A stretch of 64,000 nt of DNA from Octopus sinensis (lineage: Eukaryota): the NCBI RefSeq assembly GCF_006345805.1, contig NC_043011.1, positions 54,572,464 through 54,636,463 on the forward strand, written 5' to 3'. A program made the translations under genes and the position numbers. Below, in pieces: positions 14,765 to 60,910 of this stretch (within the stretch, counting starts at the first letter, position 1; each line of letters opens with the position of its first letter). The notes beneath the pieces are model-generated. The model had not been told where the DNA came from. It was given only the letters and a program-made list of their open reading frames with translations, and searched no databases.

Positions 14765-14810
14765 GACACCTGATGAAGGCTGGAGGGTATATCATCCGAA
14801 ACGTTGTGTT
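14765..14810 (+). ncRNA. Minimal type-I hammerhead ribozyme motif
   Basis: gacac CTGATGA A GGCTG-gagggtatat-CATCC GAAA CG TT gtgtt. Stem I has 5 bp including one G.U, and stem II has one mismatch. Confidence 0.65.
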
Positions 14811-14879
14811 AACAAATAAGATGAGGACAAATATACGTCAAATGTAAATAAAGTAAACAATACGTTTTACTTCCCATAA

Positions 14880-15770
14880 AACTGAGGCCATCAACTTCCC
14901 TACAAATGAAATGGCCTTTGTTTTTTTTTGGAGTAGGTGAGAAGAGGTGTTTTGCTGCATTGGTTGTTTCTTTCTCTCTGGCTCAAAGGGATGAAGCTAA
15001 TGCCCATTCTGAGTTAGAAAATGATCAAGGAAACCAGTTAGATCTGCCTCAAAAAATATCAAATTTTTCCATGACGTGATCTGCCTGATGCACTTTTGAT
15101 CAGGTGTTAGAAGACGTGGCACCCGCCAAGCAGAAGCCATCGTCATGCCAACTTCATTGTACAGAATATTCTTAACTCTCTCACAAGATACACCAATAGT
15201 ATTGGCTGCTTGATTTATAGTCAGTTACCTGTTATCCATCAGTACATGGTGAACATGATCAATGTTTTCCTCAGTGGTGGCAATTACAAGATGTCCAGAA
15301 CTTGGGCCATTTTCAAGACCCTCCCATCCTCTCCAAAATTCAGCTGATCGTTTTAGCATCGCTGATAAATCTGAACCATCATCATCATCATCATCGTTTT
15401 CCATGCTAGCATGGGTTGGATGATTTGACCGAGGTCTGGCGAACCAGATGGCTGCACCAGACTCCAATCTTGATCTGGCAGAGTTTCTACAGCTGGATGC
15501 CCTTCCATGTCTGCATGAATGTCCTTGGAAGTTAAACCCCATTCCTGTGGGTACTTGATAACGCCACAATGCCAAACTTTGTCCATTTTCAAGAGAAATC
15601 ACAACTAGCTACTTTTCAAGTCTTTTTGGAACCATTAGATGTCAGTTTACCTGGAAAGAAACAATGTGGTTCTTAATAAGGAGAATTGAAATTAATGTAC
15701 TCAAGATTTCACAACTCATCATCACTCCTTCATAGTTATCCTATGAACTTTTCAGCCCAACTTTTTTATT
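14880..15770 (-). pseudogene. Mariner transposase N-terminal relic interrupted by a SINE E fragment (15378-15505)
   Basis: MDKVWHCGVIKY...SKDIHADM joins ...SAEFWRGWEGLENGPSSGHLVIATTEENIDHVHHVLMDNR, a typical mariner HTH region. Confidence 0.75.
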
Positions 15771-15858
15771 AGTATTTATTATTTATTTTTTATTTCATCT
15801 AGTTTCAGCTCACGAGCTGTGGCCATGCTGGGGCACTGCCATTAAAAAAACAGTAAGT

Positions 15859-15932
15859 CGTCCCTGGGTAGGCTTGAACCACCAACCTTTTGGTTGACAG
15901 CAGAACATGCTAACCGATTGCGCCATGCAGTT
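15859..15932 (-). pseudogene. tRNA-Asn(GTT)-derived pseudogene, anticodon now GTC
   Basis: Reverse complement tggcgcaatcggttagcatgttctgctgtcaaccaaaaggttggtggttcaagcctacccagggacg matches the metazoan tRNA-Asn pattern. A T7 run follows 8 nt downstream. The acceptor 5' strand is degenerate. Confidence 0.85.
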
Positions 15933-16982
15933 CATGTCAGGATGTTGCAGGTTTTAATGTCTATGGAATGGATAAACTACTTAAGAATCCCAAATGTTTC
16001 TATGAATATTGGTACTGCAGTTGCATCATGGGATATTGCCAAATTTTTCATTTTTTTTCTTTTTTTTTAGTCAGACATATTCCTTGGTTAGTTTATTCTA
16101 GTTCACTGTGCCTTTATATGAATGATATATTTTCTCCAATGCCCAAATATTTGTAGCACTTGTTGTACTGAACAGGGAAGATAGGGAGAGACTATTGATG
16201 CTAATGTTTTGCATTTGGAAAAACAGTTTTTCCATGAGCAATAGTCAAATATGGTCATTTGTTTTGGCCAAGTTCCAAATCTATATCAGCAGAAAATGTT
16301 GTTACTAAATGTAACATTGTAAATATTTTTAAGTATAGACCTTCAGATTATCCACAATGAAGTTAAGGTTACATTAGGGTTAGTTCCACTTGTTGTTGTA
16401 GACCCTAGCACTTAACCAACCAATGGATTTTTATGAAAGAACTAACAGTAGATTTAGTGCCAAAATAAACAGAACTACAGACAAACTTTCTGCTTGGAAT
16501 ATTCCCTTTGAAATATTTATTATGCCGGAAACAGACAAGTACATGTGTATATATGTTTGTGTATGTGTATATACATATGCATAAATATGCATGTGTGTAT
16601 ACATATATATGTGAGTATGCATATATGTATGCATGCATATATGTATGTATGTATGCATGTATGTGTATATGTTTGTTTGTATGTATGTATACATGTACAT
16701 ATGCTTGCATGTGTATATGTATACTTGCATGTTCTATTCTGTTTTGAATTATTCAAATTCCTTCTTTGAGGAAGGAGATGGTTTCTAACAAAGATACGAA
16801 GCTCCATCTTTGGAATATAGATAACGAAAACAGTGTCACATTTCAAACTTGAGAAAAGTCTTGCATATTTCTACTGTTCCACTTACAGACTATATTTATA
16901 ATGTGTGAATCAGTTGGTTGATTTCTTTTTCTGAAAATCCAAGCTTATCCAGATTGTCAGATAGGCAATGTATGTACGTATG

Positions 16983-17815
16983 CAGTAATCTCTCAACTTT
17001 TGCGAGTATTACATTCCAAATCCCCCAGCAGTAGGTGAAAATCTGCAAAGTGGAAACAGTACTGTAAATCTTTATTATTATTCTTATAATTTGTATATAT
17101 TTATTTTAATATAAACGCAAAACAACACTACCGAGGAATCGACATAAGTTTAAATAATAAACCGCGATAGGTTAACCACAATATGACAAGGGATTAGAGT
17201 ATATATGTATATACAGTAATCCCTCGACTGTTGCAAGTATTACATTCCAAAACCCTCAGTGATTGGTGAAAATCTGCTAAGTAGAAACAGTACTGTACTC
17301 TTTTACTCTTTTACTTGTTTCAGTCATTTGACTGCGGCCATGCTGGAGCACCGTCTTTAGTCGAGCAAATCGACCCTGGGACTTATTCTTTGTAAGCCCA
17401 GTACTTATTCTATCGGTCTCTTTTGCCGAACCGCTAAGTGACAGGGACATAAACACACCAGCATCGGTTTTCAAGCAATGCTAGGGGGACAAACACACAC
17501 ACACACAAACACACACGACAGGCTTCTTTCAGTTTCCGTCTACCAAATCCACTCACAAGGCATTGGTCAGCCCGATGCTATAGCAGAAGACACTTGCCCA
17601 AGATGCCACGCAGTGGGACTGAACCCGGAACCATGTGGTTGGTAAGCTAGCTAGTTACCACACAGCCACACCTGCGCCTATGTATATTTTAAAAAAATTT
17701 TATAATTTGTATATATTTATTTTATTACGAATGCAAAACAACACCACGGAGGGATCGACATAAGCTTAACTAATAAACTGCAATAAGTAAACCGCAACAT
17801 GACAAGGGATTACTG
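16983..17815. mobile_element. Two tandem TA-flanked MITEs (cagtaatccctcg...gggattactg), the second interrupted by SINE A (17297-17680, -)
   Basis: 16983-17200 is homologous to 17215-17295 plus 17681-17815. The TIRs are Tc1/pogo-like. Confidence 0.7.
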
Positions 17816-18042
17816 TATATACTCTGAAATGTTTGTATTGAAGCTTCTGGTACGAGTGCCAAGCAGTACAGCATGTTTCCAAATTTCTGGTGAGTGAATT
17901 ATGTCATGGTGCTGATTTTCTCACAGACTGTGCCCAACTGACCCTACTATACTGTGAAGTCAGCAAAATCAAAAACAAGCAATGTGCATGAGCAAAATTT
18001 AGAATATGAAAGGGATGGCGACAATTTACCCATTGCCCCCTG

Positions 18043-18084
<42 letters not shown>

Positions 18085-18099
18085 CGTACATACATGCAT

Positions 18100-18141
<42 letters not shown>

Positions 18142-18147
<6 letters not shown>

Positions 18148-18410
18148 ACAAACTTTGGAAGTGTCGAATGTGTTGGTATTTTACGGACAAGAAAGTAAAT
18201 TTTGAAAGCAATAAAATGTAAAAACAGCATCGAAAGATCATGCATTTTACTCTTAGAAGATGGAAAAAGTTGCCAGCAGGCTCCAGGAGAACATTTTTCT
18301 GCATTTTAAGGGCAAAATACCCAATTTCTCTCTGCTGTTTACACAGTTATACTGCATTAAAAATTTACTTTCTTACCAACACACTCAGTACTTCTAAAAT
18401 TTGTTTATAA
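18142..18410. mobile_element. MITE-like element with ~50-bp imperfect terminal inverted repeats
   Basis: ttataaacaaactttggaagtgtcgaatgtgttggta...agaaagtaaatttt pairs with aaaatttactttcttaccaacacactcagtacttctaaaatttgtttataa. Confidence 0.6.
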
Positions 18411-18549
18411 AATATGTATACACAGACACAACAGAAGTAAATAGACATCCCATAAAACATCATTTTATGTTTATTTTAATATGAAAAGGTTTATATTTTG
18501 TATTATTTGACATTTTTGTGTTTCAGGTTCTATATGTGGCTGTTTAATC

Positions 18550-19800
18550 ATGCCACAGCCAAAAGAGGCCTTGAAACTGTCCGAATTTCAAAGAGGCTGT
18601 AATGTGGGTCAATCTGAAGGTGGACTTAGTCAATGTAAAATTGCAGAAAGCATTGAGATCCCATTTTCTACAGTTAATAGAATGATTGTGCAATTCACCA
18701 GAGAGGAGAAGGAGTCCACATCACCTTGGCCAGGTCGATCAGGAGCCTCTGACAGGACCCTTCTCTTTGTTAAGAGAAGTGTGGAGGATAGTCATCATTG
18801 CAAGGCCTCTGACATAGCAAAACATATTGATATCAGTCAGAGAACAGCTATCAGGTATCTCCACAAACTTGGCTACTATGGCAGAGCAGCAAGAAAGAAG
18901 CCACTTCTTCAACCAGCCAATATGAAGTGGAGAAAAGATTGGGCCAGTGAGATGGTGGAGAAGTCACTAGCATTTTGGAATACTGTCATATTCTCTGATA
19001 AATCCAGATTTACTGTATTTTCTGACAGTGGTCGAGTGTGGGTCTGTAGAATCTGTGATCTAGAAATTGATGTGGAATGGTGGCTATTCTGTGATGGTCT
19101 GGGGAGCAATTTGGAGCAATGGTCAATCAGAGCTGGTGGAGTGTGAGGGAAACATAAACTCAGATAAATATAAGGCGGCGAACTGGCAGAAACGTTAGCA
19201 CGCCGGGCGAAATACATAGCCGTATTTCGTCTGTCGTTACGTTCTGAGTTCAAATTCCACTGAGGTCGACTTTGCCTTTCATCCTTTCAGGGTCGATAAA
19301 TTAAGTACCAGTTACGCACTGGGGTCGATGTAATCGACTTAATCCGTTTGCATGTCCTTGTTTGTCCCCTCTATGTTTAGCCCCTTGTGGGTAATAAACA
19401 GATAATAAACTCAGATAAATATGCATCCATATTGCAGAAAGGACTCCTTCCAATCTTCTCCAGTAGTGAAATGATTAAAGAAGACTCTCTATTTATGGAA
19501 GATGGAACTCTTTGTCACATGGCTAAAAAGACCCAAGATCGGTTGGAAGAGAATAGTATTAGAAAGCTTCTATGGCCAAGCCAGTCACCAGATATGAACC
19601 CTATTGAGCACCTCTGGGGCATAATGGACAGGACACTTCATATAAAGAACAAGAAAGCATCTTCAAATGCCAGATCTTTTGAGATTACTGCATGAAACAT
19701 AGCATGAAATTTATTAAGAGAATATTCATCATCTGATCAGTAGCATGCCTAATAGGGTCCTTACACTGAAAAGTTCAAAGGGCATGTCTACTAAATATTA
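18550..19800 (+). pseudogene. Tc1 transposase, frameshifted and SINE-interrupted
   Basis: HTH region, GRAARKKPLL, VIFSDKSRF, FMEDG...WPSQSPDMNPIEHLWG. I count 34 residues between the second D and the E. Confidence 0.92.
19172..19404 (+). mobile_element. SINE family B with 18-bp target-site duplication
   Basis: ataaactcagataaatat occurs at both 19154-19171 and 19405-19422. Confidence 0.92.
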
Positions 19801-20118
19801 GATATTCACATTATAATAATTAACAAATAATTTGAATGTATAATTTCAGATTTAAATAAATTTTAATGATTATGAGGGTGCCTATTTACTTCTGTTGTGT
19901 GTGTGTGTGTGTATTAATTATTAGTGACAGAAGCAGTATTAGTATGGAAAGGTAATCTGTATATCCAACTTAACATAGATATCTTGTTACAACACTGAAT
20001 ACTGCATTATTAGCCTTGAACGACCCTCTCACATAGGTGCTTGGTGCATAAAAGCTCACTCATATAAAGACTACCTGAGGTGATGAGGGACAAACATAGA
20101 CACACACACACATATACA

Positions 20119-20164
<46 letters not shown>

Positions 20165-20201
20165 CACACACATATATATATATTTATATATATATATATA
20201 T

Positions 20202-20237
<36 letters not shown>

Positions 20238-20924
20238 TGTATATATGTACAGCAGGTTTCTTTCAGTTTCCATCTACCAAATCCATTCACAAGGCTTTGG
20301 TCAGCCCGAGGTTATAGTAGAAGACACTTACCCAAGGTGTCATGCAATGGTACTGAACCAGGAACCATGTGGTTGGGAAGCAAGCTTCTTACCACACAGC
20401 CATGCCTGTACCTATAAAAGATTTTTCTCAGTCTTGCACCAAAGACAGTGAAGATCGGTAACAACAACAAGAGCATTAACAAAAACAACAACAACAACAA
20501 CAGCCAACAGCAATAACAGACAACGGCAAGAGCATTATCAACAACAACAATTCCAGCAATGATGTAGAAAGAAGGATTGTTTTGGTTGAAATTATGCTAA
20601 AGTGTTGGTCATCTACTAGATTGGTAGTCATTGATCAATATAGATCAATATTGATTGGTGATTGGGGAATTGGTGGCTGATATAAATGGCATTTCAGTGC
20701 TGAAAAGATTGTGAAATCCAACATATTTGAAATAAAAGATATAGTAAGTGGGTGTAAGATACAGAGGAAGGAAACGGTGGAGGGGTGGGTATGAAGATGA
20801 GGTGGTTGGTGGGGTGAGCGTACAGGGATGCTTTGTGTGTATAGACTTTCAGATATTGGGTGAAGGTCACACAGGAGTGTAGTCACAAGATAGAGAGCAT
20901 CCTTATCAGAGTTCTGTTATCACT

Positions 20925-21140
20925 ATGTATAGACACCCCATAAAACATCGTTCTATGTTTATTTTAACATGTAGAGCTTCATGTTTTCTAATAATTAATA
21001 TTTTCATGCTTCAGGTTCTACATGTGACTGTTTAACCATTCCACATACAAAAGAAACCTTGGAACTATCCGAATTTCAAAGAGGCCGTATTGTGGGTCAA
21101 TCTGAAGGTGGACTTAGTCAGCGTAAAATTGCAGTAAACA
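20925..21140 (+). mobile_element. Truncated 5' portion of the same Tc1 family
   Basis: Aligns to about 18441-18648 (gaatttcaaagaggc...tgtgggtcaatctgaaggtggacttagtca). Confidence 0.85.
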
Positions 21141-22059
21141 ATTTAGCATTCAGATTTCTCTGTCAAATGTAATACTTATTTATTCACTTTGATCTGAAGT
21201 GATCATTCATTATCTTGTAGCCTTAAGATTTCAATAATATGATTGTTTATTTTTAGAATGGCATTGTTGGTAGGTGTGAAAGGCCTGATAGGGTCACTTT
21301 GAATGTAAAACAAGTAGAAGATTTGGGTTGGATATGGCCTGTTTGAATCATTCAGCTACACTGGTAGTTGAATAATATTCTTAAGGCCGCAATTTACACA
21401 CATGCAACACCTTTCAGAGCTTGTTGCCAATTCAGTTCTTAACCAAATTTAACACTGTTAACATTTTTGAAGAGGACTGGTCCCTATCTATATTTTGGCA
21501 TATAAAATTGAGATTTGAACCAGTAGGAAAAAGTTTACATCAAAATTTGTAGCAACCTTATAGGAGAGTAGCTAACACCAGTAATCAAGTTTAGATCTAA
21601 ATAACTTTTTTATTTTAAAAGCAAAATATATTTATCTTAGCTTCAATGAAAGAAGAAAGCATGAAGAATTTCATAGTTTTGTTCCCATGCAACAAAAAAT
21701 TTGTATCAAAAATGTTGTGAGGTAAAATATCATGAAAAAAATATGAGTAAGGCAAAAAATTGGATTTAAGCATAATTAACATTTTTATCTTAAAACAAAC
21801 TATATTTCAATTAAGCTTAAATGATAGAGATCAATTCGAGGAATTTCCTGGTATCAGTCTCATGCAAGGAATTTTTAAAAGAAAAAAGTGATGAGTGTTT
21901 GTTTCCCAAATTTGAGGATGATACATTTTATGAATATAGTTCTATAGGGGACTTTTGATATATGTCACCCATGTCATTGAGGTAAGGAAAAAATTATCAG
22001 CGACACTGCTAATTGACACATTTGACATTATTAATTAGCATAATAACATGGCCTGGAAA

Positions 22060-23290
22060 AATATGGATTACATGGGAAAATGCAAGCAAGGGAAATGATA
22101 TTTTAGGATTATAAACCTGGAAAATTACAGGACAAATCATTAGACTTGGAAAAAATCATGACAAGTTATTACATCTGATAAAGTACAGAACAAGAAAATT
22201 TTTACTTAAAATATTGCAACTAAGGACAAAATTTGAATAGTAAAAATTATTTGATATTAATTTACAAAGTAACATTATAATTAAAAAATGTACCATCATT
22301 TTGTTAAAATATTGACACACTAGAATACTTAAAAAATGAGAGCCAGAAGTACCAATGCAGCTAAAGTTTTATGCAAAGTAGAATAGTATATATGGTAGGC
22401 AAATTCTTTATATAGAAAATAGGCATTGGGTCAAGACTAAACATGTGAAGACTTGGCAATAACTTAGGCAATAACTCAAGCAAATTTTACTGTGAATTTG
22501 TTGTTATAAGTAGATTTTACTGTAATACATAATTAATTTTTGTATTATTCTATTTATTGTACTAACTAATTATGTACTACTATTTTTTTATAAGCTATTT
22601 TCAAATTGCTAATTATTAATTAATGATTAAAAAAATTAATTTTTTAAAGTGCAAAAAATATTTTAATTGAGCTATATTTTATTTTTAATGGAAGTATCAA
22701 GTAATAACAAATAGAAGTAACTTGTAATAGAATTTTTAGTTTTAATAAAAGCTAATATTTTCTAGATCTAAATATTTTATTTGAAATTTAATCCTTAGCT
22801 GCAATATTTTAAGTAAAAATTTCCACTTGAAATATATATGTTTTCAAAGGCGAATAGGCATCGACAGCTAGAAAGCCAGGCTACTCCAGACTGATGATGA
22901 GCAATGACTCTGAAACTAGTCTCTGGTTGCTGGCTTTGCTGGGTGGAGGTACTTATCTCCCCTTTGAAAACATAGGGACACAGGAAATATGTCAAGTCCA
23001 ATAGAAAACGGTTTTTCCTAGGGCTAAATAACAGTAGCATTCTTCCCTTTTATGGGACTGTCACATTAAGTTGACAACATACTATCACTTTATCGTGCTG
23101 CTATTGCATCAATCTCTTTGAGAGATTTAGAAATATATCATTTCTATTTTCAAAGATTTTCTTCTTCTGTTCTTTACCAGATGTAATAAGTTGTCGTGAA
23201 CTTTTCCAAGTGTAAAAACTTGTCCAGTAATTTTCCAGGTTTATAAACTTAAGAATATTATTTCACTTGCTTGCATTTTTCCCTGTAGTA
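22060..23290. mobile_element. Long-TIR non-autonomous element whose right TIR is interrupted by a hammerhead-bearing insert
   Basis: 22076-22198 is inversely homologous to 23160-23285, and 22198-22225 to 22794-22822. Confidence 0.7.
22872..22937 (+). ncRNA. Minimal type-I hammerhead ribozyme motif
   Basis: ccaga CTGATGA t GAG-caatga-CTC t GAAA CTAG TC tctgg, with outer stem aaagccag/ctggcttt and a GUC triplet. Confidence 0.75.
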
Positions 23291-23642
23291 CTAAATGATT
23301 AAGCAACAAGTGTGAAACAACACCATTGCTTCAAACAGTACATAATAAGGTTTGAGTGTCTTCTAAGGTTTCTTCTTGTTCTATGGCACACACTCTCACT
23401 CTCTCTCACACGTACACACACAAGCCTGAAATGAAGCTTTGTGATACTAATGGACATAATGTTTGATTTCAAGCTGATCTAACAGCTTATTAAAAAGAAG
23501 TCCTTTACATTGAGGTCACCAGCATTTGAGTTGTACTTCATGATGCATTATTCAGCTTTTGTCATTTGAACGAACACACACTAGACAGAAACTAGGAATA
23601 ACAAGGACATGACTCATCACTTTCAAGTGAATATAATGATTA

Positions 23643-23675
<33 letters not shown>

Positions 23676-23746
23676 GGTATATATTTCTGTGTACATTGTG
23701 CATGTATGTATATCTATATAAATATAAATATATGTGTATGTATAAT

Positions 23747-23798
<52 letters not shown>

Positions 23799-23811
23799 TA
23801 TATATATATAT

Positions 23812-23930
<119 letters not shown>

Positions 23931-23943
23931 ATTGAACCTCCAG

Positions 23944-24288
23944 AGTGAAGGTGCATGGCTCAGTGGTTAGAGCGTCGAGCTTATGATCGTGAGGTTGTGA
24001 GCTCGAATCCCGGACCGGGCTGCGTGTTGTGTTCTTGAGCAAGGCACTTTATTTCACGTTGCTCCAGTTCACTCAGCTGTAGAAATGAGTTGCGACGTCA
24101 CAGGTGCCAAGCTGTATTGGCCTTTGTCTTCCCTTGGATAACACTGGTGGCGTGGAGAGGGGAGGCTGGTATGCATGGGCGACTGCTGGTCTTCCATAAA
24201 CAACCTTGCCCGGACTTGTGTCTAGGAGGGTAACTTTCTAGGTGCAATCCCATGGTCATTCATGACCGAAAGGGGGTCTTTACCCCTT
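23944..24288 (+). mobile_element. tRNA-headed CORE-type SINE (family D) with 19-bp TSD
   Basis: A box tggctcagtgg, B-box-like gctcgaatcc, cttgagcaaggcact core. TSD tattgtattgaacctccag at 23925-23943 and 24289-24307. Confidence 0.9.
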
Positions 24289-24324
24289 TATTGTATTGAA
24301 CCTCCAGTTTTTTAATATGCTAGA

Positions 24325-24386
24325 CCACTAGTTTTAAATTGATGTTAATCAAATTAATATCCAATTTTCACCCTCATTTTAATTTC

Positions 24387-24457
<71 letters not shown>

Positions 24458-24785
24458 TGTTGTACCTGGGGAGAGTCATTCTCTTTGGTGCCTTATAATT
24501 TAACACACTCACTGGTAAAATTTTCACTTATTTCTTTTTTATTTTTTTATCTTTTTTATTTTTTATTTTTTTATTTTCTAAGTGGAAATTTTACCGGTGA
24601 GTTTGTTAAATTATAAGGCACCAAAAGAGAATGACTCTCCCCAGACACAACAGAATATGCTTCAACACACAAACTCACATAAAGAATCTTGCAAACCAAA
24701 TCCAAAAACGATATATATATAAATTTAAAATAATAAGGGTGAAAAATTAATTATTAATTTAATAAATATCAATTTAAAACCAGTG
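24325..24785. repeat. Nested inverted repeats
   Basis: 24457-24530 pairs with 24579-24653 (near perfect), inside 24325-24390 pairing with 24720-24785 (diverged). Confidence 0.8.
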
Positions 24786-24809
24786 TATATACAAAATATA
24801 CAGATTAAT

Positions 24810-24880
24810 ATCACAAACCTGTTTCGTTGTTACCACTTATGTAATCACTTACGTAGATGTCCACAACTCATCAGTGTGAT
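24810..24880 (-). ncRNA. Type-I hammerhead ribozyme motif with extended stem II
   Basis: Reverse complement reads atcaca CTGATGA GTTGT...ACAAC GAAA CAGG TT tgtgat, with inner hairpin tacgtaa-GTGA-ttacata. Confidence 0.8.
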
Positions 24881-25032
24881 CGTCATAGCAAAATATAATT
24901 TGCAGAACTGAAATTTGCTAAATTTTCTTGAGAACATTCCTTTTCTTAGTTGTAACACCATAGAGGGTTGACTTCTAGCATAAGGATGTCCAACTTAGTG
25001 GTCATCCATCTTATAAGTATATATATATATAT

Positions 25033-25802: not shown

Positions 25803-25847
25803 CACACGGACCCGGGTTTCTGGTTATTGACCCGTCGTCAGCATGTG
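25803..25847 (-). ncRNA. Minimal type-I hammerhead ribozyme motif
   Basis: Reverse complement reads cacatg CTGACGA c GGGT-caata-ACCA GAAA CCCGGG TC cgtgtg. The closing pair of stem II is mismatched. Confidence 0.75.
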
Positions 25848-26833: not shown

Positions 26834-26871
<38 letters not shown>

Positions 26872-35380: not shown

Positions 35381-35714
35381 TTCCTAGGGCTATACACCAC
35401 CGCTGTATAGCCCTAGGAAGCATCGAACGCCTCCTGATAGCTTTGACACATTTTTTGATAATCAGTGAATAAACTTCACTGAATATAGGTATATACAATT
35501 ACGAAGTCGAGGCAAATATCACCAGCTGACCGGTGTCTGCTACTCTAGGCCGATGAAGGACAACGATCCTGAAACACGGTGTCCCTAGATGCAGTTCCGG
35601 CAGCCGGGGGTGTTTGTCTCCCCTTCGTATATGTATATAAGGACACAGGGAAAAAATGTGTCAAAGCTATCAGGAGGCGTTCGATGCTTCCTAGGGCTAT
35701 ACAGCGGTGGTGTA
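35381..35714. repeat. Inverted-repeat cassette enclosing a hammerhead (Penelope pLTR-like)
   Basis: About 35393-35456 is the reverse complement of about 35651-35714. A local hairpin ttcctagggctataca/tgtatagccctaggaa lies at 35381-35419. Confidence 0.85.
35544..35589 (+). ncRNA. Type-I hammerhead motif, C4 variant
   Basis: tctagg CCGATGA AGGA-caacga-TCCT GAAA CACGGTG TC cctaga. All three stems pair. Confidence 0.8.
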
Positions 35715-35791: not shown

Positions 35792-35990
35792 AATTAATAT
35801 AAAATATTAGGGAATAAATCCAAACTTACAGGGGAAAATCAGATTTAGGATTAAATCCAATTTTATAGTAAAATATATTATATTATATTAAATTAGAGAT
35901 AAAACCACTATTAGGCAAATCAAACAATGAAAAACATATATAAATATATATCAAAAGTATTAAAAGTTTAATAAAAGATAAAGAGTAAAA

Positions 35991-36060
35991 CACTACGATC
36001 GTTTCATGGCTGTACAATTCGTAATAATTCGAGTTATGGTTACAGTTAATCTTCAGGTTA
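35991..36060 (-). ncRNA. Degenerate hammerhead motif
   Basis: Reverse complement reads CTGAAGA ttaactgta...tacagccat GAAA CGATCG TA. Stems I and II are partly decayed. Confidence 0.45.
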
Positions 36061-39349: not shown

Positions 39350-39618
39350 AAGGCGATGAGCTGGCAGAAACGTTAGCACGCCGGGCGAAACGCTGAGCGG
39401 TATTTCGTCTGCCGCTACGTTCCGAGTTCAAATTCTGCCAGGATCAACTTTTTCCTTCATCCTTTCGAGATAGATGAAATAAGTACCAGTTACGAACTGG
39501 GGTCGCTATAATCGACTTAATCCGTTTGTCTGTCCTTGTTTGTCCCCTCTGTGTGTAGCTCCTTGTAGGCAGTAAAGAAATAATATATATCATATAATGT
39601 ATCTGTCTCTATAATATG

Positions 39619-39670
<52 letters not shown>

Positions 39671-39893
39671 TTCTTTACTACCCACAAGGGGCTAAACATA
39701 GAGGGAACAAACAAGGACAGACAAAGGGATTAAGTCGATTACATCGACCCCAGTGCGTAACTGGTACTTTATTTATCGACCCCGAAAGGATGAAAGGCAA
39801 AGTCGACCTCGGCGGAATTTGAACTCAGAACGTAACGACAGACGAAATACCGCTAAGCATTTCGCCCGGCGCGCTAACGTTCCTGCCAGCTCG
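39350..39893. mobile_element. Tail-to-tail inverted pair of SINE B
   Basis: 39350-39582 (+) and 39670-39893 (-), separated by a ~90-bp microsatellite spacer. Confidence 0.9.
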
Positions 39894-47804: not shown

Positions 47805-47902
47805 AAGGTGACAGTGACTTCGAAGTTTCAGCCTGCTATCTTTCTTCGGACAGTCCGATGACGACGGCTAGCAAGCCGAAGCTTCGAAGTCACTATCACC
47901 TT
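47805..47902. ncRNA. Head-to-head fold-back pair of degenerate hammerhead motifs
   Basis: Plus: gacagt CCGATGA cgac GGCT-agca-AGCC GAAG CTTCGAAG TC actatc. Minus: CCGAAGA aagat-agca-ggct GAAA CTTCGAAG TC actgtc. Confidence 0.65.
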
Positions 47903-47995: not shown

Positions 47996-48825
<830 letters not shown>

Positions 48826-49844: not shown

Positions 49845-49917
49845 ACGGTTACTGATGAGAATTCGCCTAGTAAATTATCTTATTTGCTAAAATAATCTGA
49901 AAACTAGGTATAACCGT
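49845..49917 (+). ncRNA. Type-I hammerhead ribozyme motif
   Basis: acggtta CTGATGA gaatt...tagtaaat-tatctt-atttgcta...aatct GAAA ACTAGG TA taaccgt. Stem I is 7 bp and perfect. Confidence 0.75.
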
Positions 49918-50165
49918 AAATAATAACAAGGTAAAAGTTTTAAAATTGCTCTTAAATGTGGTTTTGGTCGTTTTAACTGCTTCTTCTAGCGTGTAAAAAT
50001 TACCTATTAAAGGTAATCTTCTCTTTTGTTTAAATGTACACTATTTTATATATATATATATTGCTAGAAAAGGTAAGGCAACAAAAGAATGAAAGAGACC
50101 TCGATATTATGTAAATAGCGGAATTTATCTATAAAAGTAATATGTGACGATTATTCGGTAGCCAT

Positions 50166-50226
50166 GATAAAACTCCGAGTTTCGGATGTCGGGGTGGAAA
50201 TCCACGCCGCCATCTCTTCAGTTATC
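50166..50226 (-). ncRNA. Type-I hammerhead ribozyme motif
   Basis: Reverse complement reads gataa CTGAAGA GATGgCGGcGTGG-attt-CCACcCCGaCATC c GAAA CTCGGAG TT ttatc. Confidence 0.75.
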
Positions 50227-50730: not shown

Positions 50731-50803
<73 letters not shown>

Positions 50804-52032
50804 CGTGCGCATATGTGTTTATGTCTCTGCGCATGTGGGTGTTCTTAGGAAATGCATGAAGATTACAATATTCCATTCCCCTTGTTCCTTAAAGCATAAT
50901 ACCTGTGTCCGTTCGATGCACTTGTTTGAAAAATGCTTTGATCTGAAATTGCGTGTTGAAACTAACTGCAATATTACAGTCATATTAGCCAAGTAAAACC
51001 CACATAAACCGTTGTGTCAGTTCTGTTTTTAAGTTTTACAATAGTATTAAATAGCAACTTGTTCCGTTTACGACCTACTCGTTAAGTATCAGGCCGTTAA
51101 TGTGCATCGTGAGACTTTTGATACTTAATAATATAACTATTTATATAAACCGAAGTGAATATAACAGTGATAATAATGTGAATTTCAAATTGCTAATATA
51201 TCTTTAGTATGCTACAACAGTAAGCTTGGGTCTTGTTCAAGAGATATAAATACCTCTCAAAGGAAGGTACAGTTATCAGGCTTGCAGAAACAGCAACATA
51301 GATTCAGTCGCCATCTCTGGATAATATACTTCACTTGGGAAAGCATGAACGCCACAGTACTTCATTCTCTAAAAGTGTCACACTTTCCCTACGGCAAAAT
51401 AAATAAATTTATTTATTAAATGTTTGAAGTATATCGGTCAACACCACGATAAGCTACTTCTTGTTCGAAATTGAGATTCGGTTTCGATTCGCAGCTGACC
51501 TAAATTTACGTCACTCGTCACAAACGTCCTTGGAAAACAGCGCTGGCAGCAGACATTTTTGTACGAGGATTTATCTTCAACTTTAATTGGGTGGGGCTAG
51601 ATTCTGTAGATGTATGGAGTATATTTCACAGTTTCTGGCAATAAAACATTATATATTTTTATCAATAATCTACATGTGCGTTTAAAGAGAGTGGAGAAAA
51701 GTATATACGTACATAAAGCGAAACATACAGCCTTTGTACGCTGACTATAAATTTTCATTTGTAAATATCATCCTAGGTGCATTAAACTATTTAACTATGA
51801 GCTCACACAAAAACCTAGAAATGCTAGGATTTCCTCAGAAAGAGCTAAAGAAACTGACTTGCATCCTCCAACTCCCATCTATCAGCAGCACAGTGAAAAG
51901 TTTGAAGACATTCCCAAGATTCTCATGAGATTCTTTAAATGAATATATGTACACAATTTAGTGAATTCATCTACAAAGACACATATTTAAAAAGTAATGA
52001 TGCACACACATACACATACACGCACACGCGGA

Positions 52033-52390
52033 CACAGAACATATGTGCATAGATGTACATACGTATATACACACACTAACTCAACGACATATTGATAAAT
52101 CTCTTTACTCAAAAAGTCTTGTCACGTTGTTAGCGGCCGGTCAGACCTCCACTAAGAAGAATATAAATATATTATGCATACACATGCAAATAAACGTGCA
52201 CACACACATGCGCGCGCACAGAACATATGTGCATAGATGTACATATGTATATACACACACTAACTCAACGACATATTTATAAATCTCTTTACTCAGAAAG
52301 TCTTGTCACGTTGTTAGCGGCCTCTAAGACGAATATAAATATATCATACATACATAGATACATACACAAATAAACGTACACACACACACA
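52033..52390. repeat. ~184-bp tandem duplication
   Basis: cagaacatatgtgcatagatgtacat...aagtcttgtcacgttgttagcggcc occurs twice. Confidence 0.9.
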
Positions 52391-53049
52391 TACACATACA
52401 TGCACACATACATATGTATACGACGGATTTCTTCCGATATCTATGTACCAAATCTACTCACAAGTCTTTCGTCAGCCCGATGCTTTAGAAGAAGTCTCTC
52501 GCGCAAGGTGCCACGCAGTTGGGCTGAACCGAAAACCATGTCGCCGGGAAGCAAACTTCTTACCACAAATCCACGTCTGCACCTGTTTATACAAATATTT
52601 TTGTTGGTAGCTAACGAAATGGCTAGTCATTCGGATTCACCCATCTCTAAGCTTCTGAAACGAATGTTTCTCGTCGGACAGGTTTTAAAGCACGTATATA
52701 TCTACGGGATTTTCTCCAACTCAGTTTATAAAACCCTACAATGCCCCGGGGTCCGTTATATTCCTCAATTTTTCTTCTTTTCATCAACAATCCACACTAC
52801 TGAGATGTCACAAATCTTCACGTCTGAGATGGTTTAAATTTTCACTTTTCGACACAGGCTTGGGAACAGGAGGTACTGGGAGGTGCAAGCACACCCATTA
52901 AAATTTTGTAGGAAGTGAAGGCATTCGGTGAACATTCGGTGTTGGATCTGGGTTTGCACCCACTTAGTAAACTACGTTCCCGCGCCTATGTTTTTTGATA
53001 ACCTTAGGCACACGAGCGTCATCCACTCGTAAAGGACTCTTAATATATA

Positions 53050-53465
53050 TATTTCTTTATTACCCACAAGGGGCTAAACATAGAGGAGACAAACAAGGAC
53101 AGACAAAGGTATTAAGTCGATTACCTCTACCCCAGTGCGCAACTGGTACTTAGTTTATCGACCCCGAAAAGATGAAAGGCAAAGTCGACCTCGGCGGAAT
53201 TTGAACTCAAAACGTAATGGCAGACGAAAAGCCTATTTCTTTACTACCCACAAGGGGCTAAACACAGAGAGGACAAACAAGGACAAACAAACGGATTAAG
53301 TCGATTATATCGACCCCAGTGCGTAATTGGTACTTAGTTTATCGACCCCGAAAAGATGAAAGGCAAAGTCGACCTCGGCGGAATTTGAACTCAGAACGTA
53401 ACGGCAGACGAAATACGGTTAAGCATTTCGCCCGGTGTGCTAACGTGTCTGCCAGCTCGCCGCCT
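53050..53465 (-). mobile_element. Dimeric SINE B
   Basis: Two tandem 3' bodies on one head. The same architecture occurs at 30130, 45310 and 57345. Confidence 0.9.
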
Positions 53466-53898
53466 GGACGTACTTAAGGGCATCCTCCAACGGACAAATT
53501 ATGAACAAGTCTCTTTAGGTAGCATCGAAGCAGAATTACTGTACATGACAAGGAAATAAAAAGTGCCACTTAGGGGCAAAACCTGACTAAATAATATATA
53601 CACTAGCTAGCTCCGTGCTGTCAAAAATGACGGCTAGTTGTAGCATTTTGTATATAAATATGGATGGTAAATCAAATTAATACACTCGTCAATGTTATTT
53701 AGTGGTTGTGTTTTGACATGTGACATCGATCATCGTTTGTTACTGAAATAACGCTGGTTCACACATACAAACATTCACATACTTCCCTTGTACACGCACA
53801 CATATACAGACATGTACTCACACAGAGTTGAAACGCTGTTTGATTTTCCTTTTCAGCGCTGAATGTTCACCATCCTATTTCATTGCACACACACAAAC

Positions 53899-53964
<66 letters not shown>

Positions 53965-54468
53965 AACATTCACACACCTCCCTTTTACATGCTAACACTG
54001 ATTTGAAACGCACCCATTACCAAGTTTGCCATCACCCCTTCTGTCCTTATTCATCTATTACTCCTTCCTTCCTCATTCATATGTTGTGTCGGAGAAAAAC
54101 ACAAGAGCATTACCATAGTAGATTATAGTTCGTTCTGACAGAACATCCAAGTTTAAGTGGAGATAAATATTTCCTCCACCTATTAATACTACCCTTGTCA
54201 CTAATATATATTTTTTAACAAGCTCACTGACTGATCGCAACACCAGTGTGTGTTGTGGCAGTATTATTCTATATATCGCTGGCGGAGAGATGAGTCACTG
54301 CTACCTCTGTAGTCGAGTAAAATGTTCTCGTGTAAAGGCAAAAGTAAGCCAAAATATTTCTGTTAAATTATATCATAATTCAAACAACAATTGCAGCGTG
54401 GAAGGTGTTTATAAGCCATTTAAGAAACACACAAAAACCGTTAGATTCACTTCAACATTTAAATTTAA

Positions 54469-54519
54469 TTTGTCAAAATATTTTCGTCGCTTTGATACCG
54501 CGACCTGTTCACTGACAAA
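54469..54519 (-). ncRNA. Hammerhead motif with G3:C8 compensatory core
   Basis: Reverse complement reads tttgtca GTGAACA g GTCGC-ggtatcaaa-GCGAC GAAA ATAT TT tgacaaa. Confidence 0.7.
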
Positions 54520-54592
54520 ACTTCGTGCTATGCAAGTACATCTCCGTATATCATAATTATATTTTGAAAAAAAAAGTCTTATTCGTATATTT

Positions 54593-55318
54593 GTTTCTTT
54601 ACTAACCACAAGGGGCTAAACATAGAGGGGACAAACAAGGACAGACAAACGGATTAAGTCGATTACATCGGCCCCAGTGCGTAACTGGTACTTAATTTAT
54701 CGACCCCGAAAGGATGAAAGGCAAAGTCGACCTCGGCGGAATTTGAACTCAGAACGTAGCGACGGGCGAAATACCGCGAAGCACTTCGCTCGGCGTCCAA
54801 ACGTCTCTGCCAGCTCGCCGCCTTTATTTTGTATATTGTTTGTCCTGTATTGTTTCATTCTATGTTTGATCATAATGATCATAATAAAGATTTTTACCTC
54901 TAGTTGTCGAGTATCCATCATTGAAGAGACCAAGGAAGGTTGAAATAACCTTATCTGGTGGTCTCGGCGCTGGAGATGGCAGGGATTTACCTCACCGCTA
55001 GCAATATAAACAAGAGTGCATTTTTTTTTCACCAAAATCCAATTTGAGAGTTGCTTTCATGGTTTCCATCATTTCTCATGGTATCTATTTCTTTATTGCC
55101 CACAGGGGGCTAAACATAGTGGGAACAAACAAGGACAGACAAAGGGATTAAGTCAATTACATCGACTCCAGTGCGTAACTGGTACTTATTTAATCGACCC
55201 CGAAAGGATGAAAGGCAAAGTCGACCTCGGCGGAATTTGAACTCAGAACGTAGCGGCAGACGAAATACGGCTACACATTTCGCCCGGCGTGCTAACGGTT
55301 CTGCCAGCTCGCCGCCTT
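54593..55318 (-). mobile_element. Two SINE B copies (54593-54823, 55087-55318)
   Basis: Family homology. tggtatct flanks the second copy on both sides. Confidence 0.9.
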
Positions 55319-55887
55319 GGTATCTGCCGCAGTATACTTTGTTCTAACGGAACACACGTTTAGATGGCGGTAAATATTACCCAGCTAAATACTTTACAGG
55401 TTTTGCAATTGTTAAACCATGCAATCTCTGGAGATGCCTAGCTTTAATCAGAGATCATTAACATCACATCGCTGACGTAGCATCTCAGATCATTCATCTC
55501 CTTCGGAACCAGCTCGTTGAACAGCTGTGGACCTTATACAAAGCACACAAGTAATCCAACTTATTGATAGTGCTTCCATTTATAGGACGGCGCCGTTGCT
55601 ACACAAACACCACACACACACACACACACAGAGAAAGGATAAAGTCCTTCCCGGGTCATGAATACATTTAAGACCGTTTTCCCGGTTTGCGTGACGCGTA
55701 TATTTTCCCCCGGGACAGGTCGCTAGTCCGTCGCAAGATTATTCCCTTTTTGCCGGCTGAGTGGAATAGAGCAACATAAAATTTAATGTTTTGCTCAAGA
55801 ACATGACGTGTTGCCCGGTTCAGGATTTGAAACCACAGTCTTAACGATCACATGTCCAACACCCCTAACCACTAATCCACATGCCTC

Positions 55888-55928
<41 letters not shown>

Positions 55929-56227
55929 ACATTAATATGTCTGATTGTAGGCCTTCACTAAAACCCATTATATCCATTTATACACCCACACGCTGAGCTT
56001 CTCTTTCGTCTATCATCATTACAAAAGTTCCTCCTCCTCCTTCTCTTCCACACAAGATACCCTCCACACACGCAGGCCTCCAGTTGTGCATCCTTACCCC
56101 ACCACCATCGTCCAAGGATCCGGCACCAAACACCATTTAACCTTTAACTTGCGAACTGCAACAACGCCCTGGAACTTCCTTCCTGTTGTGTTTTATCACC
56201 AAACATCATCCTCAGAATGATATGCTT

Positions 56228-56280
<53 letters not shown>

Positions 56281-56298
56281 TATATATATATGAATAAA

Positions 56299-56331
<33 letters not shown>

Positions 56332-56351
56332 CATATATATATATATGAGAA

Positions 56352-56387
<36 letters not shown>

Positions 56388-56477
56388 TAAATAAATTATT
56401 TATTTTTCCGTGTTAATTGTTAACAAGGTAAAATACACTCATCTAGTTTATATATATATAATATATATATATATATT

Positions 56478-56642
56478 GGCTGTGTGGTAAGTAGCCTTGC
56501 TTACCAACCACATGGTTCTGGGTTCATTCCCACCGCATGGCACCTTGGGCAAGTGTTTTCTACTATAGCCTCGGGCCGACCAAAGCCTTGTGAGTGGATT
56601 TGGTAGACGGAAACTGAAAGAAGCCCGTCGTATATATGTGTT

Positions 56643-56683
<41 letters not shown>

Positions 56684-56875
56684 CTGTGTTTGTCCCCCCA
56701 ACATTGCTTGACAACCGATGCTGGTGTATTTCCGTCCTCGTAACTTAGCGGTTCGGCAAAAGGGACCGATACAATAAGTACTAGGCTTCCAAAGAATAAG
56801 TCCTGGGGTCGATTTGCTCGACTAAAGGCGGTGCTCCAGCATGGCCGCAGTCAAAGAACTGAAACAAGTAAAAGT
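56478..56875 (+). mobile_element. SINE family A
   Basis: Family homology. Confidence 0.9.
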
Positions 56876-56882
56876 GAATATG

Positions 56883-56936
<54 letters not shown>

Positions 56937-57344
56937 TAATGTATATATATATATATATACATATACTTGTGTTTTTATACATCACTGGTGAGTGCGCATT
57001 TTGCTCGGCGTGTTAATGATTCTGCTAGCTCGCCACCGTCAGTGCATTAAAATTATGTTGTTTAATCCACATTGTTTTGGATTAACCATGGCTTATCTTG
57101 CAGCTTCAAACGTTTGATGGTGTGATTGCTTATTTTTAGAATGATACTGTAGGACAGGCGTGAGAGGCTGGATCTGATCGGTTTGAATATAAACCAGGTA
57201 GAATATGTGGGTCGGATATGGCCGGTTTAAATGCTAGAGTCAAATGCTCAATGCTTCACTGTATAGCTATTTTAACTTTCTCTAGCGGTATTGAGTACTT
57301 TCGTGGTGTACAGTAGAGACCTCTTGGCCGTCCTTGCAGATGTC

Positions 57345-57742
57345 AGTAGCAGAAGCGTTATTGCGCCGGGCGAAATGCTTTGCGGTATTTCATCTGCCGT
57401 TACGTTTTGAGTTCAAATTCCGCCGTGGTCGACTTTGCCTTTCATCCTTTCAGGGTCGATAAATTAAGTACCAGTTACACACTGGGGTCGATGTAATCGA
57501 CTTAATCCGTTTGTCTGTCCTTGTTTGTCCTCTCTGTGTTTAGCCCCTTGTGGGTAGTAAAGAAATAGGTATTTCGTCTGCCGCTACGTTTTGAGTTCAT
57601 ATTCCGCCGAGGTCGACTTTGCCTTTCATCCTTTCGGGGTCGATAAATTAAGTACCAGTTACGTACTGGGGTCGATGTAATCGACTTAATCCTTTTGTTT
57701 GTCCCCTCTATGTTTAGCCCCTTGTGGGCAATAAAGAAATAA
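57345..57742 (+). mobile_element. Dimeric SINE B
   Basis: Family homology. Confidence 0.9.
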
Positions 57743-57776
57743 GTAGTACATTCATTTTTGTATAAGCAGTTTGCTT

Positions 57777-57813
<37 letters not shown>

Positions 57814-58289
57814 TTTCTTCATTGCTGGGCAAAGTGACACTGTCAGTCGTCTCCTCCGTTCCACCGTCACGGCCCTTCACGCAGCACAACGTAACCGATT
57901 CATGAGAAAGAATGAGAGATGGGGAAATAGAGAGACGGGGAAAGAGGGAGAGAAAAAGTGTGTGAAAGGAGAATTGCCTTCAGTATTTGATTGATAAAAT
58001 TATTTATCGATCCAATAGAATTTCGAACACTTCCTGAGATTCGAGCGCAGAACGCAAAGCGCTGGAACAAATCCGGTTAAGCATTCTATGCTATGCACGA
58101 ACAACTCTTTATATACAGCAACGCATTGTGAGACTAACATTTATATATCAATAAGATATAACAGTCTCCAAACACACGCGCGTAATGTAAATGCATGTTG
58201 CAAACACATGTTAGAGAAATAAGTATAAACAGAAGTTTATGTTGAAGTTCTTACGCACGTTTCATTATTATGATTGTTAGAAGCCCAGT

Positions 58290-58680
58290 TGTCGTTGGAA
58301 GCACTCCGTCGGTTACGACGACGAGGGTTCCGGTTGATCCGATCAACGGAACAGCCTGCTCGTGAAATTAACGTGCAAGTGGCTGAGCACTCCACAGACA
58401 CGTGTACCCTTAACGTAGTTCTCGGGGATATTCAGCGTGACACAGAGAGTGTGACAAGGCCGGCCCTTTGAAATACAGGTACAACAGAAACAGGAAGTAA
58501 GAGTGAGAGAAAGTTGTGGTGAAAGAGTACAGCAGGGATCACCACCATCCCTTGCCGGAGCCTCGTGGAGCTTTAGGTGTTTTCGCTCAATAAACACTCA
58601 CAACGCCCGGTCTGGGAATCGAAACCGCGATCCTACGACCGCGAGTCCGCTGCCCTAACCACTGGGCCATTGCGCCTCCT
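58290..58680 (-). mobile_element. SINE family C, tail type 3, 10-bp TSD
   Basis: gaagcccagt at 58280-58289 and 58681-58690. Confidence 0.9.
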
Positions 58681-58694
58681 GAAGCCCAGTAATA

Positions 58695-59700
58695 AGTGTT
58701 CCATGTGCGTTCAGATATTCAGTCACGACAAATCATCAGATCCCTGAGGAGTGTTCATATTTCAGGTCCATCAAATATTCCTGCCTGCTTTTCGTCACTG
58801 AGACTTGGAAAGGTTGTACATATATTTCTGAAGCAGGTCTCCAAATTCCATCACAAGTTTTGCAAACTTTGTGAGAAGCCCAGCTTCTGTCCTGGTCTCC
58901 AAGTGTTTACTTTAATGTAAGCAAGGTACACCTTTTTCACATAGTTACTAATGTTGCGCCTCTGAGCCTGTGGAGTTAAGTTTCGACAGACGTAACAGAA
59001 GATATCGGGGTCATTACAGCACGCCTTTCTTTTCGATGCTGTATCCATAACTAGTTCACAGTGGATCCAGTTCACACCTGAAAAGAAGAGGACGAACTTT
59101 AAAGCAAAACTCAGCTTGAACATATTCAAAACTAGCAGTATCGCCCGGCGTTGCTCGGGTTTGCTTCGACCCTTTAGAATTGGAGTTTCAGAAAAGTAAA
59201 ATATTTGCATTATGTAGCTTGTTATTCTCTTTAAGTGAACATTTTTCTGGTTGAAATACATCGAAAAATGGCGACGCAGCAGTCAAAAAATCGTAAAAAA
59301 AATAAGGGTTTTCATAGAAAAAAGCACCTTTTTCATGTAAATAATTTTTGGTGTTAACATGGTCCGATTTGAATTTTTTCTTCTACGGAAGGAAGAACAA
59401 GCCTTCTTCTATCATACTCTCAATTTTGGTCAACTTGCGCCGCAGGGTCTTGGAGGAGATAGTGTTAGTTGAAGGCTTACCAAACCTGCCATACACAGAC
59501 AACTTCAGCTTTATAGAGAGAGAGAAAGATTAGCATGACGAACCATTCTTGCAAATAGTGGTGTAAAGTTAACTTTTGGTATGCTCCAGGTAAATAAGGG
59601 TATATACTGATGGCACAAAAATGTGATGTGTTACAGCAAATCTGAGGTCAGTTTTGGATTCAGCACCCAAAAATTAGTCTAAAACAGCTCTAAGATTTTA
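58695..59700 (-). pseudogene. 5' part of a probable DNA transposon with a Cys-rich N-terminal ORF, interrupted by a Helitron-like element
   Basis: MDTASKRKACCNDPDIFCYVC...ISNYVKKVYLAY, then frameshifted LGDQDRSWASHKVCKTC. Resembles a recalled invertebrate transposon-associated protein. Superfamily not assigned. Confidence 0.65.
59132..59529 (-). mobile_element. Non-autonomous Helitron-like element
   Basis: Reverse-complement copy of 10968-11351. Confidence 0.8.
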
Positions 59701-60017
59701 TACCAGAAAATAAAAGTTTATTTCGTTGATAAATGTTATCAAAGTAGTAAAAAAAGAAAGGTGAAGAGATAAAATCATAAAGACAGACCAATAGAAAGAC
59801 TTTTGTTTTCGGTCTGTCATTCTGTCTTTCCGATCCATGTGGTTATGTGATAAGAATTCTGCTTCCCAACCACATGGTTTCGGGTTCAGTCCCACTGTGT
59901 GGCACCTTGAGATTCTACAATAGCCTCGGGCTGACCAAATCCTTGTGAGCGAATCTGGTAGACGGAAACTGAAAGAAACCTGTCGTATATATATGTGTGG
60001 CGTGTGTGTGTATAAAA

Positions 60018-60509
60018 TAGTGTACGTATTTATACACAAAAGAAGTTACCTTTAACAGGACACCTTACATGCTGGAAAGGGCAGTTAAAACCCAAACCAC
60101 GAATAAGAGTAATTTCAAAGGGAATGAAAACTTAGAATATTTTATAGTTAACCCTAGACTCGAGTTTCTGCACTAATGTGCAAATAAATTAATTTGCCAT
60201 CCGTGCTTCTTCGGTAAGGGCGCTAAAATTAATGCATATTTATGCAGCGCAGAGAATACACGCGCTACATACTTATACAGTCTAATTTTTCAAATCCACC
60301 GCGCAAGCGCAGTTACATTCGGCTGCAAATAATAATAAAAAAATTAAAGCTGCGTACCGGAGAGCTTCGAAACTACGAAAGTTTTACTGTGAAAATAAGA
60401 AGGGTAGAAAATTTAGTGTAAGTATTTATACACAAAAGAGGTGACCTGTAACAGGACACCTTACATGCTGGAAAGGGCAGTTAAAGCCCAAACCATGAAT
60501 AATAAGAGT
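60018..60509 (-). mobile_element. ~396-bp unit with ~93-bp direct repeat, retrozyme/pLTR-like, inserted inside SINE A (59835-60745)
   Basis: 60018-60110 repeats at 60414-60509. Contains the hammerhead at 60152-60220. Confidence 0.7.
60152..60220 (-). ncRNA. Type-I hammerhead motif, C4 variant
   Basis: Reverse complement reads ccctta CCGAAGA a GCAC...gcaaat-taattt-atttgc...GTGC a GAAA CTCGAG TC taggg. Confidence 0.7.
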
Positions 60510-60870
60510 GTGTGTGTTTTTGTGTCTGCGTTTCCGCCGCCGCCGCCACCACCACCACCACCACCGCTCAACAACCAGTGTTGGTGTGTTGACGTCCCCG
60601 TAACTTAGCGGTTCGGCGATAGAGACCGATAGTGAATGTACCAGAATTAAAAAAAAACACGGGTCGATTCTTTCGACTAAAATTCTTCAAGGCAGTGCCC
60701 CAGCATGGCCACAGGCTAATGATTTAAAAAATTAAGATAAAAGAAAAGATATCAGTTCAAAGAGCATTTAAGACATTCTGTGATAAATTCAAATGTAGAT
60801 ACGCTGCAGTTTGACAGATGTAAATACACCTCGTTATTCTCTTCGCACGGAAAAAATACGAGAATATTAT

Positions 60871-60910
60871 GACATGACATGTTTCGTAGCTTGTTGGCCT
60901 TTCATCTGTC
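60871..60910 (-). ncRNA. Degenerate hammerhead motif
   Basis: Reverse complement reads ga CAGATGA aaggc-caacaa-gctac GAAA CATG TC atgtc. Confidence 0.4.

Follow-up and report, generated by a model that had tools for sequence, protein, structure and literature searches.

Palindromic helix III segments of Octopus sinensis hammerhead motifs probably serve self-pairing in dimers and are not unique to families

Does a genome that houses many families of hammerhead ribozymes keep them apart by giving each family its own palindrome? The question is raised by a 64,000-nt stretch of the Octopus sinensis genome (the window; assembly GCF_006345805.1, contig NC_043011.1, positions 54,572,464 to 54,636,463, forward strand), in which an original prediction drew attention to 12 hammerhead-like strings of the form GAAA-segment-UH, ending at the cleavage site. 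The segments were said to be palindromes or one base away from one, to differ from family to family, and so to limit activation to partners of the same family. In our models the palindromes likely serve self-pairing in a dimer, a role already known, and family-restricted cleavage is likely a by-product of divergence in two helices rather than a selected loop code.

All 12 strings lie where expected in the window (Table 1), whose longest open reading frame (ORF) after low-complexity filtering is 211 aa; the assembly that we scanned is microsatellite-rich and comprises 2.72 Gb. The strings belong to putative type I hammerheads, recognizable by the core CUGANGA...GAAA...UH (or a compensated 3-8 pair) with stems I and II. 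Eight segments are exact palindromes, two are of odd length with a free central base (CACGGTG and CTCGGAG) and the remaining two, CAGG and ACTAGG, miss a palindrome by a single base; these last are copy variants of families whose majority segments are CTGG, which self-pairs only through U·G wobbles, and CCTAGG. The segment, whose first base is C in 32 of 40 families, is not strictly loop III as had been proposed, since the 15.2-16.2 pair falls within it. Perfect arms were present at 10 of the 12 sites against 0.67 expected from base composition, for sites that were not chosen blind. A strict descriptor accepted eight window sites, and in the families of sites 49899 and 47829 (families are named here by the position of their window site) it accepted other copies and not the window copies. 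Motif density was about five times that of the census sample described below (8 versus 1.66 expected) in a window that was picked for such motifs, and an Rfam scan of the window gave no hammerhead family among the 150 of 241 rows listed.

Several lines of evidence indicate that the palindromes exceed chance and point to pairing between two copies. In a census of 116 evenly placed 10-kb stretches (1.16 Mb), made with a motif descriptor that ignored loop sequence, 20 of 30 motifs were palindromic, compared with 0 of 4 in a reversed-sequence control. Among 32 motifs selected on the two outer pairs only, which are not fully independent rows, the innermost loop pair was complementary in 30 (20/22 of even and 10/10 of odd length). 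A monomer hairpin cannot form this innermost pair, and a dimer can. Moreover, in none of 19 family representatives was monomer helix III predicted to be stable: where it could form at all, its energy was +2.0 to +6.0 kcal/mol. Dimer helix III was predicted at -4.3 to -19.0 kcal/mol. A self-complementary 15.1-16.1 segment with an unstable predicted monomer helix III marks these motifs as candidate dimer-type hammerheads; this part of the original prediction is thus supported, and had already been published (PMC4209133, PMC3088659).

To define the families behind the sites we made one search of the octopus genome per site. Each of 11 sites had 149-2803 first-look candidates; the CATG site had 2. 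Only the best 40 candidates were scored and 20-30 loci taken per site, so the resulting tables, which exclude the window copy, are biased toward window-like copies. Multi-copy families stand behind 11 of the 12 sites, and self-pairing (Watson-Crick or G·U, centre free) is possible in 273 of 313 family copies. The original prediction had proposed palindrome retention across such tables as a check. The tables could be made, but retention turned out to be uninformative: mismatch rates were alike in loop columns (83/1629, 5.1%) and in the 3' flank (368/8477, 4.3%), and in an unbiased sample of 11 copies of the CG family decay was symmetric (CA 2, TG 2). Inserted copies would therefore seem to decay neutrally, and we dropped retention among copies as a sign of selection.

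The copies differ in where they begin, stop some 30-400 nt beyond the cut site and often have an inverted partial copy at the same locus, a combination described as a hallmark of Penelope-like elements (PMC8557442). In one locus of the CG family (14798), a 551-aa frame is followed about 200 nt downstream by a same-strand motif, with an inverted copy upstream. We take this frame, from motifs recognized by eye, to be reverse transcriptase (RT)/GIY-YIG-like; it had no Pfam match, as was the case for most ORF fragments, and a homologous frame at another locus matched RVT_1 at 6.5e-9. Three more families (60168, 24825 and 49899) each have, at one locus, a putative GIY-YIG-like fragment upstream of the motif that may or may not be contiguous with it, the 60168 case (locus L242) being a Pfam GIY-YIG match 885 nt upstream of the motif. 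No RT/GIY-YIG frame was seen upstream of the hammerhead for the remaining eight of the 12 families. An RT-like fragment at an ATAT-family locus (L221) was not counted, as it lies on the strand opposite to the motif. A sequence search of the PDB returned nothing.

Are the loops a family-unique code? We started from 48 multi-locus and 17 single-locus candidate rows and kept those with complementary arms; one related pair was merged, two rows were added by hand and the wobble-only CTGG family was retained, giving 43 families, or 40 without three likely sisters. Loop-sharing pairs numbered 12 against 13.6 expected for the 40 families and 19 against 17.2 for the 43, and zero shared loops occurred in 0 of 20,000 random draws. 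CCGG recurs in three families, and CG, CTCGAG, CGTACG, CAGCTG, TA, CATATG and CGATCG in two each; among the window loops, CTCGAG, CTC-N-GAG and CG are common to more than one family. Families that share a loop have no flank similarity by blastn, and old kinship may yet link them. The 25820 family carries CTCGAG in 14 of 25 copies, CTCGGG in 6, CCCGGG in 2 and other segments in 3, so that the CCCGGG of the window is a minor variant and the commonest loop equals that of the unrelated 60168 family. The claim that all segments differ thus holds for the window copies and fails for the families, and a family-unique loop code is not supported.

The 25820 family also suggests how a palindrome may change. 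In a loop-masked tree of 24 of its 26 rows, six of the rows with CTCGGG or CCCGGG group together (88/92, not starred) within the CTCGAG rows, and the pair-breaking alternative CCCGAG is absent from the family copies. This observed series suggests a compensatory walk from CTCGAG through CTCGGG to CCCGGG, that is, from U-A through U·G to C-G. The 24825 family has its CTGG majority without any CCAG copy, unlike the symmetric CpG decay of the CG family. Loop-defined subfamilies were not resolved in the trees of the 24825, 50183 and 60168 families.

If the loops do not separate families, partner choice may depend on stem I. In the double-hammerhead model, which reportedly goes back to Forster et al. 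in 1988, A15.1 pairs with U16.1 of the partner copy, and stem I therefore has to join the 5' strand from one copy to the 3' strand from its partner; a stem I retained within one copy crosses helix III. A natural 363-nt tandem was predicted at -22.0 kcal/mol as a double hammerhead versus -14.6 as two monomers. Stem I sequence varies among families. For the 19 representatives, 11 of 170 mixed pairs passed helix III, 4 left each of the two swapped stems I with 3 bp or more and none did both; the smallest total penalty was 7.5 kcal/mol, and the median penalty was 15.3 kcal/mol for the stem I swap versus 10.4 for helix III. Across 38 families, 26 of 703 mixed pairs built helix III about as well as the self pair, 26 passed stem I (at least 3 bp) and none passed both, where a permutation test of low power expects 0.94 (P=0.38); at a 2-bp stem I threshold, 2 pairs passed both against 2.5 expected. 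These are nearest-neighbour estimates on single representatives that ignore tertiary contacts and proteins. Mixed-family dimers are accordingly predicted not to cleave, chiefly on account of the stem I exchange that a double hammerhead requires, and we could detect no incompatibility beyond the chance level. Activation by same-family partners only, as the original prediction had it, thus probably holds, for a different reason than the loop alone.

The explanation that we consider probable joins double-hammerhead self-pairing, drifting palindromes and a stem I swap that blocks mixed dimers. The window sites would be isolated element ends, truncated at the 5' side, from many Penelope-like and retrozyme-like families; no window copy has a second same-strand family member in the window plus 40 kb of neighbouring sequence. 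The palindromes would be kept since two identical copies in one tandem transcript must pair as a double hammerhead to cut. Because identical strands pair only if self-complementary, every lineage would need some palindrome; which one it carries would drift via wobble intermediates, a likely course because a change in the master copy shows in both partners at once. Families would hence often differ in loop yet collide at chance rate. The sequences, family tables, collision rate, covariation series and nesting geometry are as we observed them. We infer that the ribozymes cleave, that in this genome they depend on dimers to do so and that the changes are neutral.

Several observations weigh against this explanation. 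An ORF of Penelope type was seen for one of the 12 families and hinted at for three. Direct same-family tandems within about 1.5 kb occur at just 7 of 179 family loci, some of them overlapping; at one further locus, same-family direct copies lie 4.6 kb apart (L369). The unconstrained fold of the natural 363-nt tandem pairs the copies more widely than a double hammerhead does, the CCCGGG copy of the window itself falls outside the CTCGGG/CCCGGG clade, and the collision and permutation tests are insensitive to weak avoidance. Finally, one Penelope hammerhead was reported to cleave only with its protein, and cleavage was unneeded for insertion in vitro (PMC11167929).

This last finding, of cleavage absent without the element's protein, also favours an alternative in which each family's own protein supplies specificity and activation by binding or chaperoning RNA and the palindrome merely permits pairing. 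So does the low activity reported even for dimers (PMC4209133), and one of our families, 35571, carries an RNA-binding-like ORF. This family consists of 363-366-nt direct repeats, each with a type I hammerhead, as in retrozyme monomers (loci L005/L028, L021/L022 and L024). Contigs from three presumed RNA runs and one large run cover the monomer, with a head-to-tail joint in X1 and X3 and a near-identical one in X15, which could stem from circular RNA or from tandem DNA. Several loci also contain a unit of 1.75 kb, with a 17-nt repeat at its borders, whose junction with the monomer lies some 20 nt upstream of the hammerhead core. The unit's frame of about 450 aa is zinc-knuckle, resembling ORF1 of long interspersed nuclear elements, without RT in the stretches examined; Pfam zf-CCHC falls just below cut-off, Atlas CCHC/ZCCHC3-like clusters come at 0.90-0.93, and ratios of nonsynonymous to synonymous substitution rates of 0.21-0.38 (10 pairs of 5 copies) indicate purifying selection. 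Among 40 matches, the 9 best loci comprise 5 in which the unit leads into the hammerhead, 2 in which it leads into a different unit and 2 in which unrelated DNA follows. The unit would be either an insertion with a preference for this site or a retrozyme derivative that codes for protein. A gag-like ORF adjoining a hammerhead has been noted for Chlamys-2 (PMC8557442), and our literature search found no case of an RT-less ORF with a hammerhead. A role for proteins is compatible with double-hammerhead self-pairing; taken alone it leaves the palindrome unexplained, and we consider it unlikely as the whole account.

We hold it to be somewhat more doubtful that the roughly 40 hammerhead families in 2 Mb form a two-part lock, of swapped stem I and palindromic helix III, kept mutually non-activating by selection, with solitary copies in host transcripts silent, each element cutting its own tandem RNA, and the zinc-knuckle protein acting as pairing chaperone in one family. 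A selected self-recognition code, in which selection made helix III (alone or together with stem I) incompatible among co-active families and so kept them from activating or blocking one another, would fit the failure of 677 of the 703 mixed pairs at helix III, the lack of any pair passing both helices at 3 bp or more, and the switch of palindrome within a subclade of the 25820 family. We nevertheless judge it improbable: loops are shared at chance rate, joint compatibility does not depart from the permutation expectation, and CTGG pairs with CTAG and CCGG no worse than with itself. Moreover, foreign partners would seldom compete, because the likely partners are copies on one transcript. That the palindromes are ordinary stem III hairpins of monomers or features at the DNA level, with no role in a dimer, is very hard to credit, for although a segment of 7-10 nt is long enough for a monomer stem of 3-4 bp and odd lengths run through two whole window families, 2- and 4-nt segments make no useful hairpin, the innermost pair is complementary in 30 of 32 motifs and monomer energies are positive.

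Some features touch on the ribozyme core and segment in their own right. The young 54485 family has a natural compensated G3-C8 core in 31 of 35 copies, and an engineered double change at 3-8 is known to restore activity in part (PMC11167929). The U4C core is found in 33 of 35 copies of the young 35571 family, and U3-A8 cores occur in several other families. A second CG-segment family, with 17 more copies in the 1.16 Mb, keeps its stems and GAAA-CG-UH and mostly has U at core position 6; with the core intact in 2 of 21 copies, it looks as though it spread once catalysis had been lost. Another family (L297) carries the 14-nt segment CAGTTCTAGTCCTG in 4 of 4 copies, with palindromic ends, a central CTAG and symmetric mismatches between them, which a dimer could still pair.

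Table 1. Putative hammerhead motifs of the window and related features (window coordinates unless a locus is named).
Site	Interval	Strand	Feature, segment	Family and remarks
14798	14765..14810	+	Loop-less minimal hammerhead, GAAA-CG-UU	3' end of truncated Penelope/Poseidon-like element; 2803 candidates; CG 39/50
22912	22886..22926	+	Hammerhead, CTAG	CTAG 22/24
24825	24810..24880	-	Hammerhead, CAGG	Majority CTGG 16/21, CAGG 2/21; U·G-wobble palindrome
25820	25803..25847	-	Hammerhead, CCCGGG	Majority CTCGAG, with CTCGGG/CCCGGG subclade
35571	35544..35589	+	Hammerhead with U4C core (35550-35556), CACGGTG	CACGGTG 33/35, core CCGATGA 33/35; young 363-nt retrozyme-like family; inverted partial copy immediately upstream; related core variants (U4C or U3-A8) at L170, L233, L296, L342
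36005	35990..36060	-	Hammerhead, CGATCG	CGATCG 21/21; young near-identical family; 2 contiguous stem I pairs only
47829	47810..47855	-	Old hammerhead, CTTCGAAG	11/22; within inverted-repeat hairpin
49899	49845..49917	+	Hammerhead, ACTAGG	Majority CCTAGG 18/20
50183	50166..50226	-	Hammerhead, odd segment CTCGGAG	Family-wide: CTCGGAG 22/35, CTCAGAG 5/35
54485	54469..54519	-	Hammerhead with swapped core pair G3-C8 (GTGAACA), ATAT	ATAT 31/35, core 31/35
60168	60152..60219	-	Hammerhead, CTCGAG	CTCGAG 14/25; equals majority loop of unrelated 25820 family
60885	60871..60910	-	Degraded hammerhead-like remnant, CATG	Core broken; 2 genome candidates only
10229	10213..10250	-	Additional hammerhead, CTCAGAG	Absent from original prediction; arms same as 50183 family
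48420	48404..48490	-	Additional hammerhead-like motif, CATATG	Absent from original prediction; weak stem I
48769	48744..48781	+	Second CG-segment family, 4 window copies	Others near 14220-, 36211-, 48170-; absent from original prediction; cores broken in window
	L355:490-2215	-	Zinc-knuckle unit	Also L353, L354, L023, L025, L028, L359-L367; 172 first-look candidates

Elsewhere in the window, a common short interspersed repeat forms a long inverted repeat around a microsatellite (39503-39747), with a below-threshold match to a plant microRNA in Rfam, and the 211-aa frame (18511-19143, plus strand) has motifs that resemble those of a Tc1/mariner transposase fragment.

This genome supplies natural pairs that could reveal which of the two helices decides on the partner in a double hammerhead: the 25820 and 60168 families have the same loop and different stems I, the 49899 and 54485 families stems I that match over 4 bp across the pair and different loops, and one family a likely wobble path. 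If mixed pairs prove inactive, the families would offer a ready-made set of dimer-gated ribozymes orthogonal to one another, irrespective of selection.

How does this locus compare with known systems? Palindromic loop 3 and a dimer model were described for minimal hammerheads in metazoan Penelope-like elements by Cervera and De la Pena in 2014 (PMC4209133), and reviews restate that model (PMC6765202, PMC6466107); the CG segment is the published loop-less minimal hammerhead. The legend of Fig. S8 in Perreault et al. 2011 (PMC3088659) remarks that a number of ribozymes carry palindromes, each of which could pair in a dimer, and those repeat-type hammerheads resemble ours in that different ribozymes have different palindromes. 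Unlike the present analysis, the portions of that paper available to us make no claim on cross-family compatibility. A search of the openly accessible literature found no published claim of a family code or of heterodimers; Figs S1-S7 of PMC4209133 and Fig. S8 of PMC3088659 may tabulate the same loops. Like the animal non-LTR (long terminal repeat) retrozymes (PMC7229834; bioRxiv 10.64898/2026.07.22.740005), the 35571 family has a monomer of 363-366 nt, a type I hammerhead and direct tandems; it differs in that its hammerhead is of minimal type and that some copies adjoin a coding unit, the retrozymes being described there as non-coding. With the minimal hammerheads of PMC4209133 our motifs have in common type I topology, an extra base before stem II, a palindromic 15.2-16.2 pair plus loop 3, U3-A8 variants, and many diverse families per genome, mostly as solitary truncated copies. 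Beyond what that paper gives in the parts available to us, the octopus genome adds a table of family loops, a chance-level collision rate, a wobble path, the stem I swap argument, and natural, family-wide G3-C8 and U4C cores.

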